Shown here: piece by piece, positions 426-57,258 of the stretch
How the letters are laid out: every line of letters begins with the position of its first letter
How positions within the stretch are numbered: position 1 is the stretch's first letter
Assembly: GCA_963832105.1 (NCBI GenBank)
Contig: CAWHSS010000003.1
Span: forward strand, 50,046-114,045
DNA: 64,000 bases
Source of the DNA: an uncultured Chloroflexia bacterium
Lineage (GTDB): Bacteria > Chloroflexota > Limnocylindria > Limnocylindrales > CSP1-4
Direction: 5' to 3'
Program-made: the position numbers and the translations under genes
Notes under the pieces: generated by a model
Told to the model about the DNA's origin: nothing
Database searches by the model: none
What the model saw: only the letters and a program-made list of their open reading frames with translations

Positions 426-1371
426 TCAGCCGATCGTCAGCAGCCGCCGCGGGTTGTCGATCGTGATCGTCCGGATCTCGTCGTCCGAGACCCCCGCGGC
501 CCGGAGCCGTGGCAGGAACGCGTCGGCCAGGTACGTGTAGCCGTTGCCGCCGTAGTGGGCCAGCTGGGAGTCGTGGCAGACGTCCTGGGACAGCAGGATC
601 CGCTCGACGTGGCCCGCGGCCAGCAGGTCGCACAGCGACTCGACGATCCGGCCCTCGCCGTGGCGCTCCAGCGGCGTGAAGCTCATCCCGAGGAAGTCGA
701 ACTCGACCGACGCCCCGCGCTCCACGATCGCCCGATGGTAGGCCGGGTCGGGGTTGGAATCGGCGTGACCAATGACGACTCGTGACAGGTCGGCGCCCTC
801 CGCCTCGAATACGGTGAGCTGGTCGAGCCCGACGGTCGACTGGACCGCGTGCGTCGTGATCGCGAGCCCCGTCCGTCGCGCTGCCCGCGCGGCCGCTCGG
901 TGGACGCGTTCCTCGCGGGCCGAAAGCCACGGCTTGTCGGTGCCGATCTCGCCGATGATCCCGGCCTTGATTCCGCTCCCGGCAACGCCATCGGAGGCGT
1001 CGCGGACGATCTCGTCGGCAAGGTCGTCGACCGTTCGGCGATCGATCAGGGCCTCCGGCGGGTAGTGGGCCTCGCGATACCAGCCTGCACCCATGACGAT
1101 GTCCAGGCCGGTCGAGGCCGACAGGCCGGCCAGCCAGTCGGGGTCGCGCCCGACGCCCGGCAGGGTGAGATCGACGAGGCACGTGCCGCCCTTCTCGCCG
1201 GAACCGGGCGAGCTCGGCGGTGATGATCGGCTCGTCGCGCCGGAGCTCCCAGTAGTCCCAGCGGTTCGGGATGTGCCACAGCGCGATCGCCGTGTGCTCG
1301 TGGGGCAGCGTGAAGCCGAGGTTGCCCGGGTCGATCGGCCCGCGGACCGTCTGGACGTGGGCGTCGGTCAC
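426..1371 (-). CDS. phosphotriesterase-family (PTE/PHP) metal-dependent hydrolase; apparent frameshift near 1100-1200
   Basis: N-terminus MTDAHVQTVRGPIDPGNLGFTLPHEHT carries the PTE His-x-His metal motif. The body (ORF 426-1094: IGEIGTD..., TTHA..., LLSQDVCHDSQ) lies in a second frame. Confidence 0.7.
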
Positions 1372-2058
1372 GAAGCCCGGCTCGCCTTGAGCGAGACGTA
1401 GGGTCGCGAGGGCGCAGCCTCGAGCGGCACGGGAGGCGCCGCGTCGCGAGCCGCGAAGAGCAACTCCAGGATCGCCAGCGCCCGCTTCTCGGCGTCGTCT
1501 CGGCGGTAGGCCGGGCCGTCCTCGATCGCCTCGATCGTCAGCCCGTCGAGCAGTGCCGCGAACGCATGGGCGACGCTTTCCACGTCAAGCCATGGCGGAA
1601 GCTCACCGCGAACGACCCCCTCCTGGAGGAGCAGCGCGGTCGGGCCGACGATCTCCCGGCGCCGGCGTCGGACCATCTCCCGGATCGCCGGGTCGGCATC
1701 AACCTCGGCCCAGGCGAGCGTCATCAGGACAGACGTGCCCGTACCCGCGCGCTGCTCCTCGAACTGGTCGAAGAAGAAGCCGAGGGCCGTCGCGACCCGC
1801 TCCCGGTAGTCGGTGACGGTCGCCGAGCCGATCGCGCAGCTCGCCCAGCTCCTGGTCGGTGATGAGGTCGCAGCCCGCGAGGATCAGCTCGGACTTGCTC
1901 TTGAAATACGTGTAGATCGCGCCGACCGACAGCCCGGACTTGCGGACGATGTCCTGCATCGTCGCGCGGTGGAAGCCGTGCTCGGCGAACACCTCGATCG
2001 CCGCCCGGACGATCCGGTCGCGGACCGCTTGCTCGTGTTGAGCGCTGACGCGGGGCAT
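1368..2058 (-). CDS. TetR family transcriptional regulator; apparent frameshift about 1725-1800
   Basis: N-terminal HTH FHRATMQDIVRKSGLSVGAIYTYFKSKSEL (ORF 1699-2058), followed by a TetR C-terminal domain in ORF 1368-1724. Divergent from the MMPL gene. Confidence 0.7.
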
Positions 2059-2153: not shown

Positions 2154-2165
2154 CGAATGATCATT
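2154..2165. promoter_or_regulatory. perfect 12-bp palindrome GAATGATCATTC in the tetR-mmpL divergent intergenic region; candidate TetR operator
   Basis: Direct read. A partial copy, aaaacgaatggtc, sits about 80 bp upstream (2070-2086). It lies between the TetR start (2058, minus strand) and the MMPL start (2221, plus strand). Confidence 0.35.
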
Positions 2166-2220
2166 CTCTATTGTCGGCGTCGTCACGCGACCGTCTCAAC
2201 CGCACCGAAAGGCCCGATCG

Positions 2221-4593
2221 ATGCTGTTCTCTCGCTGGGGAGCGTTCGTCTACCGCTTCCGACGCCCGATCGCCATCCTCACGATCGTCCTCGCCATCGC
2301 TGCCGGCTCGGTCGCCGGTGGCGTCACGGACGCCCTGAGCGCGGGCGGCTGGCTCGATCCGAACTCGGAATCCGCGCGCGTCAGCGAGCGACTCGACGCG
2401 GAGTTCGGCGCCGGGCGCGGCTCACTGGTCGCCCTGTTCGAGGGCGAGCCGGGTAGCGACGCCCGCTCCGATGCGTTCCAGGCGGACATCGCGGCGTCGA
2501 TCGATCGGCTCATCGCCGACCCGCGCGTCGACGGCGTCGTCGGCTATGCAGAGACGCGCGACGACCGCTTCGTCAGCACCGATGGGACCTCCGCGTACGT
2601 CGTCGTCCGCCTCGCCATCACCGACGAGGAGTCGGTCGACGTGATGGACGAGCTGCGGGCGCTGTTCGACCAGCCCCAGGGCGCGAAGCTGATGCTGGCG
2701 GGCGTCGGGCCCTTCACCCAGGACCAGGCCAAGCAGTCGGAGAAGGAGCTGGTCCAGGCCGAGCTCATCTCCGGCCCTTTCGCGCTGCTCATCCTGCTCG
2801 CGGTGTTCGCCTCGGTCGTGGCCGCCGGGCTGCCGCTGCTCGTCGCCGCGCTGACGATCCCGACCACGCTGGCCGCCGTCTTCTTCGTCGCCCAGACCAC
2901 CGAGCTCTCGATCTACGTCCAGAACGTCGCGACGATGCTCGGCCTGGCGCTGGCGATCGACTACTCACTGTTCATGGTCAGCCGCTTCCGCGAGGAGCTC
3001 CGCCGCGGGCGCTCCGTCCAGGCCGCCGTCGAGATCATGGTCGCGACCGCCGGCAAGGCGGTCGCCTTCTCCGGCCTCGCCGTCGCGATCGGACTCTCCG
3101 GGCTGCTGCTGTTCGAGCCGGCCGCGCTGCGCTCGTTCGGCATCGGCGGCTCGCTCGTCGTGGCCGCCTCGGTCTTCTACGCGCTGACGTTCCTGCCCGC
3201 GGTCCTGGGCATGCTCGGGCCGCGGGTGAATGCGCTGAGCATCGCCGGACTGATCGCGATGATCCGCCGAGCCATCGGCCGCGCGCCGGCAGCGAGCGGT
3301 TCGCCTCGGACCTCACGCTGGGAGCGCGTCGCCCACACAGTGATGGCCCGGCCCTTCCTCTTCCTCATTCCGACGCTTGCCTTCCTGCTCTTCGCCGGCA
3401 CGCCGTTCCTGCGCCTGAGCCAGGGAATTCCGAACGCCTCGACGCTGCCGCCGGGTCTCGAGAGCCGCGATGCCGCGGTCGCCCTCGAGCGCAACTTCCG
3501 GCCCGGCGAGACGTCGCCGATCACGATCCTCGCGACGGTCGATGGCGACCCGACGAGCGAGGCCAACCTCACCGCGATCGCCCAGTACGCCAAGGCCGTC
3601 GACGCCGTTGATGGGATCGACCGGGTCGAGGGGCCGTTCAGCGCCCTGAGCGATCCCGAGACCGGCGTCGAGCCGACCCCGGCCGACGTCGCCGCCTTGT
3701 TTGCAACCCCGCGCGAGCAGCTCCCGCCGGAGCTCGTTGCAGCTCGCGATCAGGTCGCCGACGCGTACATCCGCGGCTCCACCGTTCGGCTCGACGCGAT
3801 CTCACCGATCGACCCGGTCAGCCCGGCCGGCACGGCCATCATTCCGTTGGTCCGGGCTGTCGGCGTGGACGGCGTGACCACCGAGGTCGGCGGCCTCGCC
3901 GCCCAGGGTCGAGACTTCATGACCAGCCAGAGCTCGACGATCCCGTGGGCCGTCGGCATCACCCTCGCGGCCAGCGCGCTGATCCTGTTCCTGCTGTTCG
4001 GCTCCGTGGTCATCCCGATCAAGGCCGTGATCATGACGCTGCTCTCGATCACCGCCAGCTTCGGGGCGCTCGTCTGGATCTTCCAGGACGGGAACCTCTC
4101 CGGGATCCTGGGCTTCGAGTCACCCGGATTCACGATCGCCGGCAACCCGATCATCATGTTCAGCGTGCTGTTCGGGCTGTCGATGGACTACGAGGTCCTG
4201 CTGCTGTCCCGGATCCAGGAGGCATACCGGCGGACCGGCGACAACACGGCGTCCGTCGCGGAGGGCCTGACGAAGACCGCCGGCGTCATCACCGGCGCCG
4301 CGCTGATCATGGTCGTCGTCTTCTCCGCATTCGCCCTGGCCGAGTCGATCACGATCAAGAGCATCGGCGTCGGAATGGCGATCGCGGTCCTGATCGACGC
4401 GACGATCATCCGGGTCCTGCTGGTCCCTGCCACGATGCGGCTCATGGGCCGCTGGAACTGGTGGGCGCCGGGGCCGCTCGGGCGGTTCGCGGACCGGCTC
4501 GGCTTCAGCCACGCCGAGGACGAGGACATCGACGACAAGGACGCCTCGGGACGACCGATCGGCGACCCGTCGGCAGGCCTGGCGAGGCCCTAG
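2221..4593 (+). CDS. MMPL family RND-type membrane transporter (790 aa, intact)
   Basis: Two blocks of 6 TM helices, each preceded by a large periplasmic loop. The length and topology match MMPL/SSD-domain proteins. Confidence 0.85.
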   Translation: MLFSRWGAFVYRFRRPIAILTIVLAIAAGSVAGGVTDALSAGGWLDPNSESARVSERLDAEFGAGRGSLVALFEGEPGSDARSDAFQADIAASIDRLIADPRVDGVVGYAETRDDRFVSTDGTSAYVVVRLAITDEESVDVMDELRALFDQPQGAKLMLAGVGPFTQDQAKQSEKELVQAELISGPFALLILLAVFASVVAAGLPLLVAALTIPTTLAAVFFVAQTTELSIYVQNVATMLGLALAIDYSLFMVSRFREELRRGRSVQAAVEIMVATAGKAVAFSGLAVAIGLSGLLLFEPAALRSFGIGGSLVVAASVFYALTFLPAVLGMLGPRVNALSIAGLIAMIRRAIGRAPAASGSPRTSRWERVAHTVMARPFLFLIPTLAFLLFAGTPFLRLSQGIPNASTLPPGLESRDAAVALERNFRPGETSPITILATVDGDPTSEANLTAIAQYAKAVDAVDGIDRVEGPFSALSDPETGVEPTPADVAALFATPREQLPPELVAARDQVADAYIRGSTVRLDAISPIDPVSPAGTAIIPLVRAVGVDGVTTEVGGLAAQGRDFMTSQSSTIPWAVGITLAASALILFLLFGSVVIPIKAVIMTLLSITASFGALVWIFQDGNLSGILGFESPGFTIAGNPIIMFSVLFGLSMDYEVLLLSRIQEAYRRTGDNTASVAEGLTKTAGVITGAALIMVVVFSAFALAESITIKSIGVGMAIAVLIDATIIRVLLVPATMRLMGRWNWWAPGPLGRFADRLGFSHAEDEDIDDKDASGRPIGDPSAGLARP

Positions 4594-33318: not shown

Positions 33319-33394
33319 TGGAGCGGGAGACGAGGTTCGAACTCGCGACATTCAGCTTGGAAGGCTGACGCTCTGCCAACTGAGCTACTCCCGC
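33319..33394 (-). tRNA. tRNA-Gly (anticodon TCC), 76 nt with encoded CCA
   Basis: Minus strand reads GCGGGAGTAGCTCAGTTGGCAGAGCGTCAGCCTTCCAAGCTGAATGTCGCGAGTTCGAACCTCGTCTCCCGCTCCA. It has a 7-bp acceptor stem, D-loop AGCTCAGTTGG, anticodon loop CTTCCAA and T-loop GTTCGAA. Confidence 0.9.
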
Positions 33395-40698: not shown

Positions 40699-41598
40699 GA
40701 GGCAAGATGACCGACACGAGCGCGACGGCGACCACCGGCGGGGCGGAGAACCTGGCGCCCGACGTGGCCGCTGCGTTGGCCGCACCGGCGCCGCCGTCGG
40801 AATTGACGGTCGAGGCCGCCGGCATCCCGTTCCACGCCCTCGCCTGGGGAGCCCCCGACGCGCCTCCGGTCCTCCTGCTCCACGGAGTCACCTCGGCCGC
40901 GAGGACCTGGTGGCGCGTTGGACCGGCGCTCGCTGCCGCCGGGTTCCGCGTCGTCGCGCCGGACCTGCCGGGCCACGGCGAGACGAAGCACTGGCTGGGC
41001 CACCACCGGTTCGGCGACAACGCGGCGGATCTCGTTGCGTTCGCCAGGGCAGCCGGCCTGGAACGCCCCGACCTCCGGATCGTCGGCCACAGCTGGGGAG
41101 CGATGACCGCGGCCGCAATGCCGGCGGCGGGCCTCATTCCCGCCACGCTGGTCCTGATCGATCCGCCGGCCATCCCGCTCCCCGCCCTCAAGGCCATGCT
41201 CGAGGACCCGGTCGAACGCGCCTACGACGACCTCGACGAAGCGGTCGCAACGGTCGGTCGCCTGAATCCGACGTGGCCGTACGGCGACGTCCTCGCCAAG
41301 GCCGAGGGCCTGACCCAGTTCGACGAGGCGGCCGTGCGCGCCGTGCTCACCCAGAACGGCGACTGGGACGGCGGCCTCGGCGCGTCTGGCCGATCCCGCC
41401 GCGCAGGACGTGCCCGTCTGGCTGATCCGCGGCGATCCGGCGTTCGGCGGCTACGTCCCGGACGCCGTCCTTCCTGACTTCGCGGCGCGCCTCGGTGCGG
41501 AGCGGATCATCACGATCGCGCGGCGCGCCCGCACTCGCCGCAGCGGACGCACCCCGAGGCGCTGGTCGCGGCCCTGCTGCGCGCGCTCGAGGGCTGAA
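40699..41598 (+). CDS. alpha/beta-fold hydrolase; 2 apparent frameshifts near the 3' end
   Basis: PVLLLHGVTSAARTWW...GHSWGAM nucleophile elbow (G-H-S-W-G). C-terminus continues in ORF 41410-41685 (VWLIRGDPAFGGYVPD), then a third frame up to ...LLRALEG*. Confidence 0.65.
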
Positions 41599-41626
41599 CG
41601 GCCGCGCCCCTCGGGCCCTCAACAAT

Positions 41627-41782
41627 GGCCAGATATTCCTCGGGGGACTACTAGGCCGACATGGCCTCAGGGATCCCGGGTCTAACCCTGATTCGTTAGC
41701 CGTTGATGACTGACTGAGACCGACCCCAGGTCGATTCGGGCGCTTCAAGCGGGCCTAATAGTCTGTGGGCGAATATCTGGCC
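41627..41782. repeat. 155-bp lower-GC non-coding element bounded by perfect 12-bp inverted repeats (GGCCAGATATTC / GAATATCTGGCC)
   Basis: Direct read. Internal palindromes AGGCC-gacat-GGCCT and GGGATCCC. No ORF longer than 12 codons. Located between convergent hydrolase and glgA genes. Confidence 0.5.
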
Positions 41783-41802
41783 GATTGCAGGGGGAAGAGG
41801 GC

Positions 41803-43284
41803 TCAGCGCCGGCGGCGAATCTGAACCGCCCGCTCGTACATGTCGACGTACTGCGGCGCCGAGCCGGTCGTCCAGTCGAAGTCGACCGCCATTCCCCGCT
41901 CGATCAGGCCCGCCCACGCGGGGCCGCCGGCGGCGCGCATCGCGATCGCCGCCTCGCACGCGTCGGCCAGCGCGTCCGGCGTCGCCGCGTCGAAGGCGAA
42001 CCCCGTGCCCTCGCCCGGGAAGCGCAACTCGTCGATCACCGAGTCGGCCAGGCCGCCCGTCCGCCGGACGATCGGTGGCGTGCCGTAGCGCAGCGCCGAT
42101 CATCTGGCCCTGCCCGCACGGCTCGAACCGCGACGGCATCAGGAAGAAGTCGACGCCGGCGTAGATGCGGCGCGCCATCGCCCGGTCGAATCGCTCGAGC
42201 AGCGCGACCCGGTCCGGACTCCGCTCGGCGAGGCCGCGCAGGTCGGCCGCGATCCGCGGGTCCCCGCTGCCGAGTACGACGAGACGGCAGCCGGCCGCGA
42301 GGAGGCGCGGGGCCGCGTCGGCCAGGAGATCGAAGCCCTTCTGCGGATCGAGCCTGCCGATCATCCCGAGAACCGGCCCGTCGTCCGTCGGGTCGAACCC
42401 GACCCGAGTCAGCAGGTCGGCCCGGCAGGTCGCCTTGCCGGTCAGGTCATCGGCCGAATAGGTCGCCGCGAGGTCGGCGTCGGTCGCCGGGTTCCAGACC
42501 TCGGTGTCGAGGCCGTTGAGGATGCCGAGGTAGCGGTCGCCCTTCGCCCGGAGTTCCCCGTCGAGCCCGAAGCCAAGCTCCGGGGTCAGCGACTCGCGGG
42601 CGTAGCCGGGGCTGACGGTGTTGACCATCTCGGCCCGCTCGATGCCGGACGCCAGGAGGTCGATGCCGACTGCGTCCGGATCGACGATGCCGTCGCCCGG
42701 CGCCAGCCCGAGCTGGCCGAGCGACTCGAGCGGCGTCCAGCCGTGATACGCGAGGTTGTGCAGCGTCAAGACCACGGCCGCCCGACCGAGCACCGGGTCG
42801 TCCCGATACCAGCGGTCGCGGAAGATCGGGGCGGGGCCGGCGTGCCAGTCGTGGATATGGATCACGTCGACGGGTCGGTCGCTCTCCGCACGCAGCGTCT
42901 CAAGGGCGGCTCGGCAGAGAAGCCCGAACCGCCACGGGTTGTCGGCGAAGTCGCCGCCGCTGGGCGACCCGTACAGCCCGTCGCGGTCGAAGGCCGCGGG
43001 ATGGTCGACGAGACGCAGCCGATAGCCGTCAGCCTCGACGTCGATGAGCGCTGAGCTCGACCGATCCGCCGAGGGAATGCGGGTCCGGCACCCGCAGCGG
43101 CGTGCCCCGTCCAGCGGACGCCGGAACGGGCACGGACCGGTATCTCGGCAGGAAGACGTCGACGAGGCCATCGGTCGCCCCGGGCACCCTGCGCCAGGGA
43201 GCGGGCGAGGGCGTCGACCACGTCGCCGAGTCCGCCGGTCTTCGCCCACGGCTCGCACTCGGCGGCGATGAACGCAATGCGCAT
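41803..43284 (-). CDS. glgA: glycogen (starch) synthase, GT5 family; at least 2 apparent frameshifts
   Basis: N-terminus [26 protein letters not shown] (ORF 42862-43290); middle and C-terminus in ORF 41696-43363 and ORF 41803-42039 (...[21 protein letters not shown]...). Confidence 0.8.
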
Positions 43285-43381
43285 CGGCATCGGGCCATGG
43301 TAGCGACGGGCCCGGCGCGGTACCGAACCGTGCGCCAGACCGGTTCAGGGAGCCCGGCGGCAAACGTTATCATCGCCGGAC

Positions 43382-56027: not shown

Positions 56028-56162
56028 TCAGGACAGGCCGACCGGGGTGGCCGGGCGTCGTGGATCCGACGATGAGTCGCTCGAGTCGACACCGAACTGG
56101 GTCGCAAGGATGCCAAGCATCGCCAGGAGCAGAATGACGATCAACATTTCGATACCGGCCAT
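56028..56162 (-). CDS. possible 44-aa single-TM small protein, divergent from the GntR gene
   Basis: ATG preceded by AAGAAGGGA at a 7-bp spacing. MAGIEMLIVILLLAMLGILATQFG then a Ser/Asp-rich tail. Confidence 0.3.
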   Translation of the reverse strand: MAGIEMLIVILLLAMLGILATQFGVDSSDSSSDPRRPATPVGLS

Positions 56163-56226
56163 CCGAGTATCCCTTCTTGGTATAGTTGGCTAGGCCAAAT
56201 CGGATCGTAACTTGGACTAGAGTACT

Positions 56227-57258
56227 GTGTCAACAGACGAAATCGAACTACCGCCACCTCAGCAACCGGCCTCCGGCAGCGAGCTCGATGTCGAGCGCGA
56301 TTCCGATGTTCCTATCTCGACTCAGATCTTCTGGCAGCTCGCCTATCAGATCGATTCCGGTCGGCTGCTGCCCGGTGCCCGCCTCGCGCCGGTGCGCGAA
56401 TTGGGTGCCGCACTCCGAGTAAACCCCAACACGATCCGGGCGGTCTATCGGCGTCTGGCCGACGCGGGCTACGTCACAAGTCGCCATGGCGCCGGGACAC
56501 ATGTCGCCGACCGCCCGCCCCAGCGCCGCGGCGCCGAGGCGCTGGCCGGCATCGTCGCGGAGATGCTCCGGCGCGCCGCCCAGGCCGGCTTCACGGCCGA
56601 CGAGGTCGCCGCTGCCGCGTTCGCCGCGGCCACGGAGCGGAAGCGGCCGGGGGCCCGCGTCCAGGTCCTGTTCGCGGAGTGCACGAACGCCGATGCCGGC
56701 TACGACGCGGCGCGGCTCGTCGACGCCTTCCCCGGCCAGATCGATGCCGAGGGAACGCTCCTCGACGACCTCCCGGATCGGCTCGAGCGGTTCCACTACG
56801 ACCTCGTCGCCACGACGACGTTCCACGCCGACGAGGCCCAGGCGCTCGTCCACGGCCGCGTCCCGGTCGTCGCGATGCTCGTCGGCCCGGGCTACGTCGA
56901 GCTCGTCCACGAGATCGCCGGCCTGAAGGCGGGCTCCCGGATCGGTCTCGTGTGCGCATCCGAGCGCGGGGCGGAGAACATGGCCGAGACGCTCGCGCTG
57001 TCGGGCACGACCGGCATCGAGCTGATCAGCGCGCCGATGGACGACGAAGCGGGCATCGCGCTGGTCGACCGGACCGCCGACGTGATCCTGCTCTCCCGCG
57101 AGGCGTTCGCGAAGGGCCTCGACAAGCGGTTCGAGCGGCCGGAGCGGATCCGCCAGTGGTCGTACGAGTTCGACCCGTCGGGCCTCGAGTTCCTGCGGCG
57201 CGCCGTCGAGCACGTCATCGCCACGCGGCGCACCGAGGCGGTCCCCGCCGGAGCGTGA
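56227..57258 (+). CDS. GntR family transcriptional regulator with a roughly 230-aa C-terminal sensor domain
   Basis: Winged-HTH VPISTQIFWQLAYQIDSGRLLPGARLAPVRELGAALRVNPNTIRAVYRRLADAGYV. Intact 343 aa. Confidence 0.8.
   Translation: MSTDEIELPPPQQPASGSELDVERDSDVPISTQIFWQLAYQIDSGRLLPGARLAPVRELGAALRVNPNTIRAVYRRLADAGYVTSRHGAGTHVADRPPQRRGAEALAGIVAEMLRRAAQAGFTADEVAAAAFAAATERKRPGARVQVLFAECTNADAGYDAARLVDAFPGQIDAEGTLLDDLPDRLERFHYDLVATTTFHADEAQALVHGRVPVVAMLVGPGYVELVHEIAGLKAGSRIGLVCASERGAENMAETLALSGTTGIELISAPMDDEAGIALVDRTADVILLSREAFAKGLDKRFERPERIRQWSYEFDPSGLEFLRRAVEHVIATRRTEAVPAGA

Follow-up and report, generated by a model that had tools for sequence, protein, structure and literature searches.

REPINs are composed of two inverted REP sequences, each an imperfect palindrome, which flank a less conserved spacer at preferred spacings and have the potential to form a hairpin (PMC3116915, PMC3337134; Bertels & Rainey 2011), and their conservation has been attributed to recognition in trans by a RAYT dimer (PMC3116915, PMC3337134). 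The element described here is a previously undescribed hairpin-forming DNA element of ~200 bp that is found in a few soil Chloroflexota, and in its anatomy it is a close match to the published REPINs. It too has two inverted imperfect palindromes, here called arms, an unconserved spacer and complementary ends that could form a long hairpin as single-stranded DNA or as RNA; it shares the preference for discrete inter-arm spacings, a class of ~110 bp included, and it is extragenic and non-coding, encodes no enzyme and has arms that are more conserved than their surroundings. There are also clear differences. REPINs are present in tens to hundreds of copies per genome, whereas one or two copies of the element are detected, the arms of the element are longer (31 nt with a 7-nt centre), and the centres of the two arms in type-1 copies are both G-rich on the same strand and do not pair, rather than being complementary. 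A REP-RAYT system has one RAYT gene, for a Y1 HUH transposase, in the genome, and the same REPs usually lie on either side of it. No RAYT gene is seen beside any copy or in the window, by which is meant the whole 64-kb stretch of DNA that was analysed, and the host belongs to another phylum.

Other small palindromic elements bear comparison. The Correia/NEMIS elements of Neisseria and the ERIC/IRU elements of enterobacteria are intergenic, non-coding imperfect palindromes of 100-200 bp, often located at the 3' ends of genes, that show presence/absence polymorphism and are conserved across species at non-orthologous sites. They have a TA target-site duplication and are mostly multi-copy, with ERIC being low-copy in some hosts. 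The element is likewise an intergenic non-coding palindrome that is polymorphic between related genomes, but neither a regular duplication nor a multi-copy population was found for it.

The integron attC site and the attP(+) hairpin of the CTX phage have two paired boxes around a spacer of 6-8 nt that is largely unpaired, beyond which the terminal structure varies, and in both the structure is conserved more than the interior sequence. In its hairpin form the element would also have paired boxes around a central spacer and a variable interior, but neither the R''/R' consensus (RYYYAAC/GTTRRRY) nor the dif-like core ATAA-N6-TTAT is present in its boxes, it has no prophage, integrase or cassette array nearby, and type-2 copies have a central 7 nt that is for the most part complementary. 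The attC comparison was made by reading the sequence: the arms end in GGCC...GGCC without AAC/GTT boxes, and the element is not in a cassette position, being surrounded by housekeeping genes that element-free relatives also have.

With Y RNA and 6S RNA the element shares a length of ~160-200 nt, a conserved stem formed by the ends, a variable remainder and about one copy per genome. It differs from them in having no Rfam match, the 6S and Y families included, no strand preference, and neither a structured interior nor a central bubble that is conserved across copies; no Ro/Rsr gene was seen near the copies.

The Limnocylindria and their relatives among the Chloroflexota are abundant, uncultured bacteria whose mobile DNA and non-coding elements are, to our knowledge, essentially undocumented. 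The family presented here has the anatomy of REPINs and MITEs without their copy number.

The element in the hydrolase/glgA spacer

The element lies between two convergent genes that had been taken for a hydrolase gene and glgA, and both identities are confirmed (Table 1), with the glgA product having 93% identity to starch/glycogen synthases of Limnocylindrales-like MAGs. The hydrolase gene is broken by two frameshifts in the assembly and glgA is also frameshifted; orthologues of the hydrolase are intact in L002, L005, L006 and L008 (related loci are given L numbers throughout).

The original prediction was of a segment of about 55% GC at 41627-41782, bounded by a perfect 12-nt inverted repeat. 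The repeat is as described, with GGCCAGATATTC (41627-41638) being the exact reverse complement of GAATATCTGGCC (41771-41782), and so are the small internal palindromes AGGCCgacatGGCCT and GGGATCCC and the lack of coding capacity, no coding-like ORF being present in the segment. The GC content was put too low and measures 59.0%, against 70.2% for the window, a value among the lowest 1% of 156-nt windows. The extent given to the repeat was also too small, as it is bounded not by 12-mers but by imperfect arms of 31 nt, which are 77% complementary when the repeat is extended without gaps.

By itself a perfect 12-nt inverted repeat is unremarkable in the window, where there are 68 inverted-repeat pairs with a seed of >=12 at a distance of <=300 nt, and where the 12-mer inverted-repeat pattern with <=2 mismatches gives 6 matches against 2.3 expected. 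The abundance of such exact repeats would allow the element to be an ordinary AT-richer spacer that contains an inverted repeat by chance. Its arm pair is the longest of the 68, and the feature is counted as real because the arms extend beyond the 12-mers and are conserved in other genomes. Ten sequences of other genomes contain homologous arms, close relatives lack the spacer and the covariation of the arms exceeds that of all 500 shuffles, which refutes the ordinary spacer and leaves it with next to no probability.

In the predicted fold the pairing goes on past the arms into the sequence on either side, and the arms together with these pairing flanks therefore take the element across the entire 205-nt gap between the stop codons. 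The four flank pairs adjoining the arms are 70% paired over 11 copies, and a flank resembling the left outer flank (CCCC..ATCT) is seen in other copies. The right arm is the most conserved portion of the family, and in the interior it is the length class alone that appears to be constrained.

Table 1. Features of the hydrolase/glgA spacer and its two flanking genes (positions in the window)
Feature	Position	Strand	Remarks
Alpha/beta hydrolase gene	40707..41597 (start approximate)	+	Abhydrolase_1, 2e-18; stop TGA 41595-41597
Whole spacer	41598..41802		205 nt from hydrolase stop to glgA stop, filled by element and flanks
Left outer flank (CCCCTCGGGCCCTCAACAAT)	41607..41626		Predicted to pair with right outer flank, lengthening the stem
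Left arm, 31 nt	41627..41657		Imperfect 12-7-12 palindrome; self-complementarity 8/12 vs 3.1 in shuffles
Left arm, first half-site	41627-41638		GGCCAGATATTC
Left arm, centre	41639-41645		CTCGGGG, G-rich, 7 nt
Left arm, second half-site	41646-41657		GACTACTAGGCC
Interior spacer, 94 nt	41658..41751		Sequence not conserved, not significantly structured
Right arm, 31 nt	41752..41782		Self-complementarity 9/12
Right arm, first half-site	41752-41763		GGCCTAATAGTC
Right arm, centre	41764-41770		TGTGGGC, 7 nt
Right arm, second half-site	41771-41782		GAATATCTGGCC
Right outer flank (GATTGCAGGGGGAAGAGGGC)	41783..41802		Other copies also have the motif (A)GAT-TGCRAGGGG on their right side
Glycogen synthase gene glgA	41803..43300 (5' end approximate)	-	Stop TCA 41803-41805 as read on + strand

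Filled and empty sites in related genomes

Eight loci syntenic with the hydrolase/glgA region were compared, and the glgA homologues place the window in Limnocylindria-like Chloroflexota. Only one of these relatives, L005 (GCA_046716065.1), is filled, with a spacer of 215 nt compared with 205 nt in the window. Its arms are recognisably the same as those of the window copy, and its interior is almost unalignable. In L001, L002, L004, L006, L007 and L008 the site is empty, with the two stop codons just 9-26 nt apart. This presence/absence polymorphism at orthologous sites (2 filled and 6 empty loci) is a feature expected of a MITE.

The filled state is polyphyletic in a neighbour-joining tree of glgA, where L004 is the sister of the window and L001 that of L005, both of these sisters being empty, and thus either two gains in the same spacer of ~17 nt or at least 4 clean losses are required. 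In L005 the extra DNA is surrounded by a 6-bp direct repeat that matches at 5/6 positions (GTCGCC/GTCACC), with the empty L001 having a single GTCGCC; no such direct repeat surrounds the element in the window copy.

Further copies and their sites

Beyond the window copy ten more were found, in Limnocylindria-like Chloroflexota MAGs and in metagenome contigs; eight of these belong to type 1 and two to a diverged type 2. A scan of 185,579 species genomes with the arm pattern gave eight matches, three of which are true (L009, L011 and L016), all in MAGs labelled uncultured Chloroflexia and with one match per genome. The same kind of scan of the JGI metagenome collection gave three true matches (L017, L019 and L020), and the copy in L021 was found through synteny around an aminotransferase gene. 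The remaining genome matches (L010 and L012-L015) and a metagenome match (L018) are unrelated or AT-rich sequence with a lone arm-like match, and were taken as chance because they have no partner arm. As both collection scans used exact patterns, arms below ~90% identity are missed, and the one or two copies counted per genome are a minimum. A scan of viral contigs with the pattern gave 0 matches, and distant-mode BLAST of plasmid and phage collections with the spacer found no match.

The copies occupy at least 6 intergenic positions with unrelated neighbours. Site A, between the convergent hydrolase and glgA stop codons, holds the copies of the window and L005. Site B, with a small Zn-ribbon gene on one side and a class-III aminotransferase gene on the other, is filled in L009, L011 and L019, and site B', the divergent promoter region between the start of the Zn-ribbon gene and that of a GNAT gene, is filled in L017. 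Site C lies between a cupredoxin gene and a malectin-domain gene (L016), and site D is flanked by the genes for a histidine kinase and an epimerase (L020). L011 and L021 each also have a full-length diverged type-2 copy at B', which in L011 gives two copies 0.5 kb apart, and in L021 the type-1 copy begins just 10 nt to the right of the end of the type-2 copy. L022, L023-L032 and L033 retain the Zn-ribbon and aminotransferase genes without the element. The majority of copies are 7-60 nt from a stop codon.

The small ORF (62-101 aa) that lies directly upstream of the class-III aminotransferase gene is present throughout the clade, with copies of the element on either side of it. It has an arginine-rich N-terminus and a C-terminal CxxxxC...CxxC motif that is zinc-ribbon-like, without a Pfam match, and is located at 2076-2378 in L011, 884-1177 in L019 and 2465-2764 in L021, being present also in L022 and L023-L033. 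The spacer between this gene and the aminotransferase gene, which is the one filled in site-B genomes, contains 3-4 short repeats of AATCGGAC(T/G)A in L021 (2800-2900). What seemed in L021 to be a remnant, a relic arm in the empty spacers upstream of the aminotransferase gene, was rejected, with local alignments no better than those of shuffles.

The range of sites bears on the proposal that the element is a bidirectional terminator, or an mRNA-stabilising hairpin, serving the hydrolase and glgA genes. It does lie between convergent stop codons in the window, L005, L016 and L020, and a long hairpin is possible on either strand, but an intrinsic terminator, with a G+C-rich hairpin followed by a T-run, was searched for in 41300-42100 with 0 sites found. 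Moreover, six relatives manage the same convergent genes with the short spacers described above and no hairpin element, some of the other copies are found upstream of a gene or have divergent starts on their two sides, and termination does not need a conserved arm sequence of 31 nt. Termination as the primary function is thus largely refuted, and a role of this kind is very improbable.

Copy number, duplication and the search for an enzyme

The proposal of a MITE has fared better, in that there is a family of short non-coding segments bounded by terminal inverted repeats, with polymorphism at the original site and copies at other sites, but the target-site duplication and the multi-copy population of a MITE are wanting. 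No target-site duplication of fixed length was found, and in 9 copies the flanks proved to be inverse-complementary and not direct repeats. In the three MAGs scanned whole there is one pattern match per genome, where a MITE would have multiple similar copies. A fuzzy search for arms and half-arms was run over 272 kb, made up of the window and related loci; it found no second copy, arm or half-arm in the 64-kb window and none beyond the copies given above in the ~200 kb of related loci, and the maximum seen is two copies of different subtypes in one neighbourhood. With no multi-copy population and no regular target duplication, the element cannot be classed as a standard MITE or REPIN.

No autonomous relative with the same terminal repeats is present among the exact-pattern matches, and neither a transposase, an integrase nor a Y1/HUH gene was found among the ~35 coding-like ORFs of the window or beside any copy.

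Conservation and covariation of the arms

The arms are conserved in all 11 copies, with identities of 70-95% in all pairs. The interiors, which vary from 91 to 115 nt across the family, are 50-55% identical, against a shuffled mean of 50.3 (sd 2.5), the exception being the site-B clade. Six of the copies were found with a right-arm pattern, which inflates the apparent conservation of that arm, yet the left arms are as conserved as the right. The pair of type-2 orthologues in L011 and L021 was found by synteny alone and serves as a control for this ascertainment, having arms that are 77-87% identical and an interior that is 52% identical. Arms conserved at orthologous positions speak against dead copies and for arms that are kept intact by selection. 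The type-2 interiors share a small hairpin, GATGCG-N6-CGCATC (at ~2610-2630 in L011), which is the sole conserved piece of these diverged interiors.

The complementarity of the arms is maintained through double substitutions. In the alignment of the arms of 11 copies, 81% of cells pair and 15 of 35 pairs are altered on both sides, with most of the double changes coming from type 2, e.g. ATATCC/GAATAT to ACTTGC/GCAAGT. When the partner arm is slid by 1-3 columns pairing falls to 28-42%. The covariation score is 0.254 compared with 0.158 for shuffles, 0 of 500 of which are as high. Such covariation is expected of an RNA helix, and it is equally expected of two ends that match one protein or that pair as single-stranded DNA.

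A structured RNA was among the original predictions for this segment, and the covariation would recommend a clade-specific structured non-coding RNA gene, or an RNA derived from a 3' UTR. In such an RNA the ends would form a protein-binding closing stem, with two 12-bp helices around a conserved 7x7 internal loop, and leave the apical 90-115 nt free to vary, as in Y RNAs; the pseudo-symmetric stem might be recognised by a dimeric RNA-binding protein or RNase III. A lower GC content is usual for RNA genes where the genome is GC-rich, and that of the element is below the value for its genome. Its one or two copies per genome and its conservation across the clade would suit an RNA, as would arms that are conserved at orthologous positions, and the short distance of most copies from a stop codon makes read-through transcription possible.

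On both strands a region of 211 nt has a better fold than its shuffles (z = -3.2 and -3.8), but this is due to the arms, as the interiors alone fold no better than shuffles (z between -2.0 and +0.9, with -0.17 for the window copy). Nor is there a consistent strand. In the 11-copy alignment G.U and A.C mismatches are balanced at ~7 versus 10, and the more stable strand is plus in 6 of 9 copies and minus in 3 of 9, with no consistent preference in folds of the arms only or at full length. Rfam 15, which covers 6S, Y RNA, SRP, riboswitches and ribozymes among others, searched with cmscan at E<=1 over 41000-42400 gives no match overlapping the element, and no sigma-70-like promoter was found at the element to go with a terminator, itself missing. 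The gene contexts are also inconsistent, being convergent 3' ends, spacers between co-directional genes and a divergent promoter region, and palindromic arms with spacing classes ~10 bp apart have no obvious meaning for an RNA. The structured RNA is weakened by these results and we consider it unlikely.

At gathering score the sole Rfam match in the whole window is a tRNA, tRNA-Gly (TCC) at 33319-33394 on the minus strand, which is also the sole ARAGORN match.

Palindromic arms and their spacing

Every arm is itself an imperfect 12-7-12 palindrome, with a mean self-complementarity of 7.4/12 compared with 3.1 for shuffles, and the half-sites GGCCAAATATTC and GGCCTAATAGTC are identical at 10 of 12 positions. 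The start-to-start distances between arms are 122, 124, 125, 126, 126, 134, 134, 135, 135, 135 and 146 bp and fall into classes of ~125 (122-126), 135 (134-135) and 146 bp, as if the spacing were quantised by the helical repeat of DNA. The periodicity at ~10.5 bp has R = 0.80, which random lengths equal in 0.0003 of trials, or in 0.003 with the site-B clade collapsed, in a statistic for which kinship is only partly corrected and the period was examined after the fact. The type-2 orthologues have a net length difference of 11 bp after several indels. Together the palindromic arms and spacing classes point to action as DNA.

This could be action on behalf of the host, with the element a cis-acting DNA site made up of two dyad-symmetric protein-binding sites of 31 bp that share a face of the helix at a distance of 12, 13 or 14 turns and are bound by a dimeric or tetrameric protein. 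That protein might be a site-specific recombinase forming a synapse, a looping regulator or a chromosome-maintenance protein, and the position of the site would drift between lineages via rare rearrangement. The dyad symmetry and near-identical half-sites of the arms, the helical periodicity, an interior free in sequence and constrained in length, the low copy number, purifying selection on the arms in place and the lack of strand bias are all in keeping with such a site. Yet it would have no consistent neighbouring gene or promoter to control, it is absent from many close relatives with the same genes, and two copies of different subtypes occur in one neighbourhood. The arms are also, by eye, unlike the dif and attC consensus sequences. 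A replication terminus or fork trap was considered and rejected, with cumulative GC skew turning only broadly at 40-52 kb and gene orientation opposite to that predicted for a terminus at the element. An invertible switch was likewise rejected, the interiors of orthologous copies aligning better direct than reverse and so not being inverted. We consider a host site of this kind improbable, at the same level as a structured RNA.

A mobile element fits the insertion polymorphism, the many sites and the copies side by side. Our preferred reading, held tentatively and with a little less than even confidence, is that the element is a low-copy REPIN- or MITE-like doublet that is recognised by a protein encoded elsewhere. 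The element would be a small non-coding unit that acts at the level of DNA, with a trans-encoded protein binding the arms, possibly when these are folded as hairpins in single-stranded DNA. A candidate for this protein is a dimeric transposase or recombinase, e.g. a RAYT-like HUH enzyme, which may occasionally move or copy the unit into spacers between genes, leaving no regular target-site duplication. The unit would often land just past stop codons or beside an older copy, and there may be an effect on read-through transcripts of the flanking genes. Against the doublet stand its very low copy number, the lack of a consistent target-site duplication and the lack of an enzyme gene in the window or beside the copies. 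Arms conserved in place are also unexpected for a purely selfish, immobile copy, with the caveat that the search pattern inflates this conservation for the right arm.

A more speculative proposal, and a doubtful one, is that the element, rather than being a transposon in decay, is a palindrome of palindromes that is maintained vertically at one or two copies under purifying selection, with arms that are matched and integral helical turns apart. It might then be a new cis-site for a dimeric recombinase or for the organisation of DNA, or else a REPIN-like replicator at the low-copy limit. If confirmed, the family would offer a tractable case in which to study the persistence of a non-autonomous palindromic element at such a low copy number, one or two per genome, and the protein that reads it. 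The element is in addition a marker of insertion polymorphism between closely related MAGs, and its annotation would prevent it being mistaken for a terminator or an sRNA.

Neighbouring genes and other features of the window

The element lies within a glycogen/maltodextrin cluster (41.8-53.5 kb of the window) that is syntenic in relatives and contains glgA, glgP, alpha-amylase-family genes, a GH57 gene, a sugar ABC transporter and a LacI regulator. At 40.7-45.6 kb and 15.9-17.3 kb the genes for the hydrolase, glgA, glgP (alpha-glucan phosphorylase) and a class-III aminotransferase are each split across two or three frames. Orthologues of these split genes are intact in relatives, with L001 having the same frameshift problem, and the splits look like the product of an indel-prone long-read MAG assembly rather than pseudogenes.

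Two further stretches of low GC content are found in the window. The region at 56095-56250 has the lowest GC of the window (48.7%), contains TTGGTATAGTTGGCTAGGCCAAATCGGATCGTAACTTGGACTAGAGTACTGTGTCAACAG and is located just upstream of a gene for a GntR-family regulator (56221, plus strand); it is probably a promoter/operator region. At 2155-2166 a low-GC patch holds the perfect 12-nt palindrome GAATGATCATTC, with the fragment of a TetR-family gene (1371-1883, minus strand) on one side and the gene for an MMPL transporter (2161-4590, plus strand) on the other, and it is plausible that this palindrome is a TetR operator.
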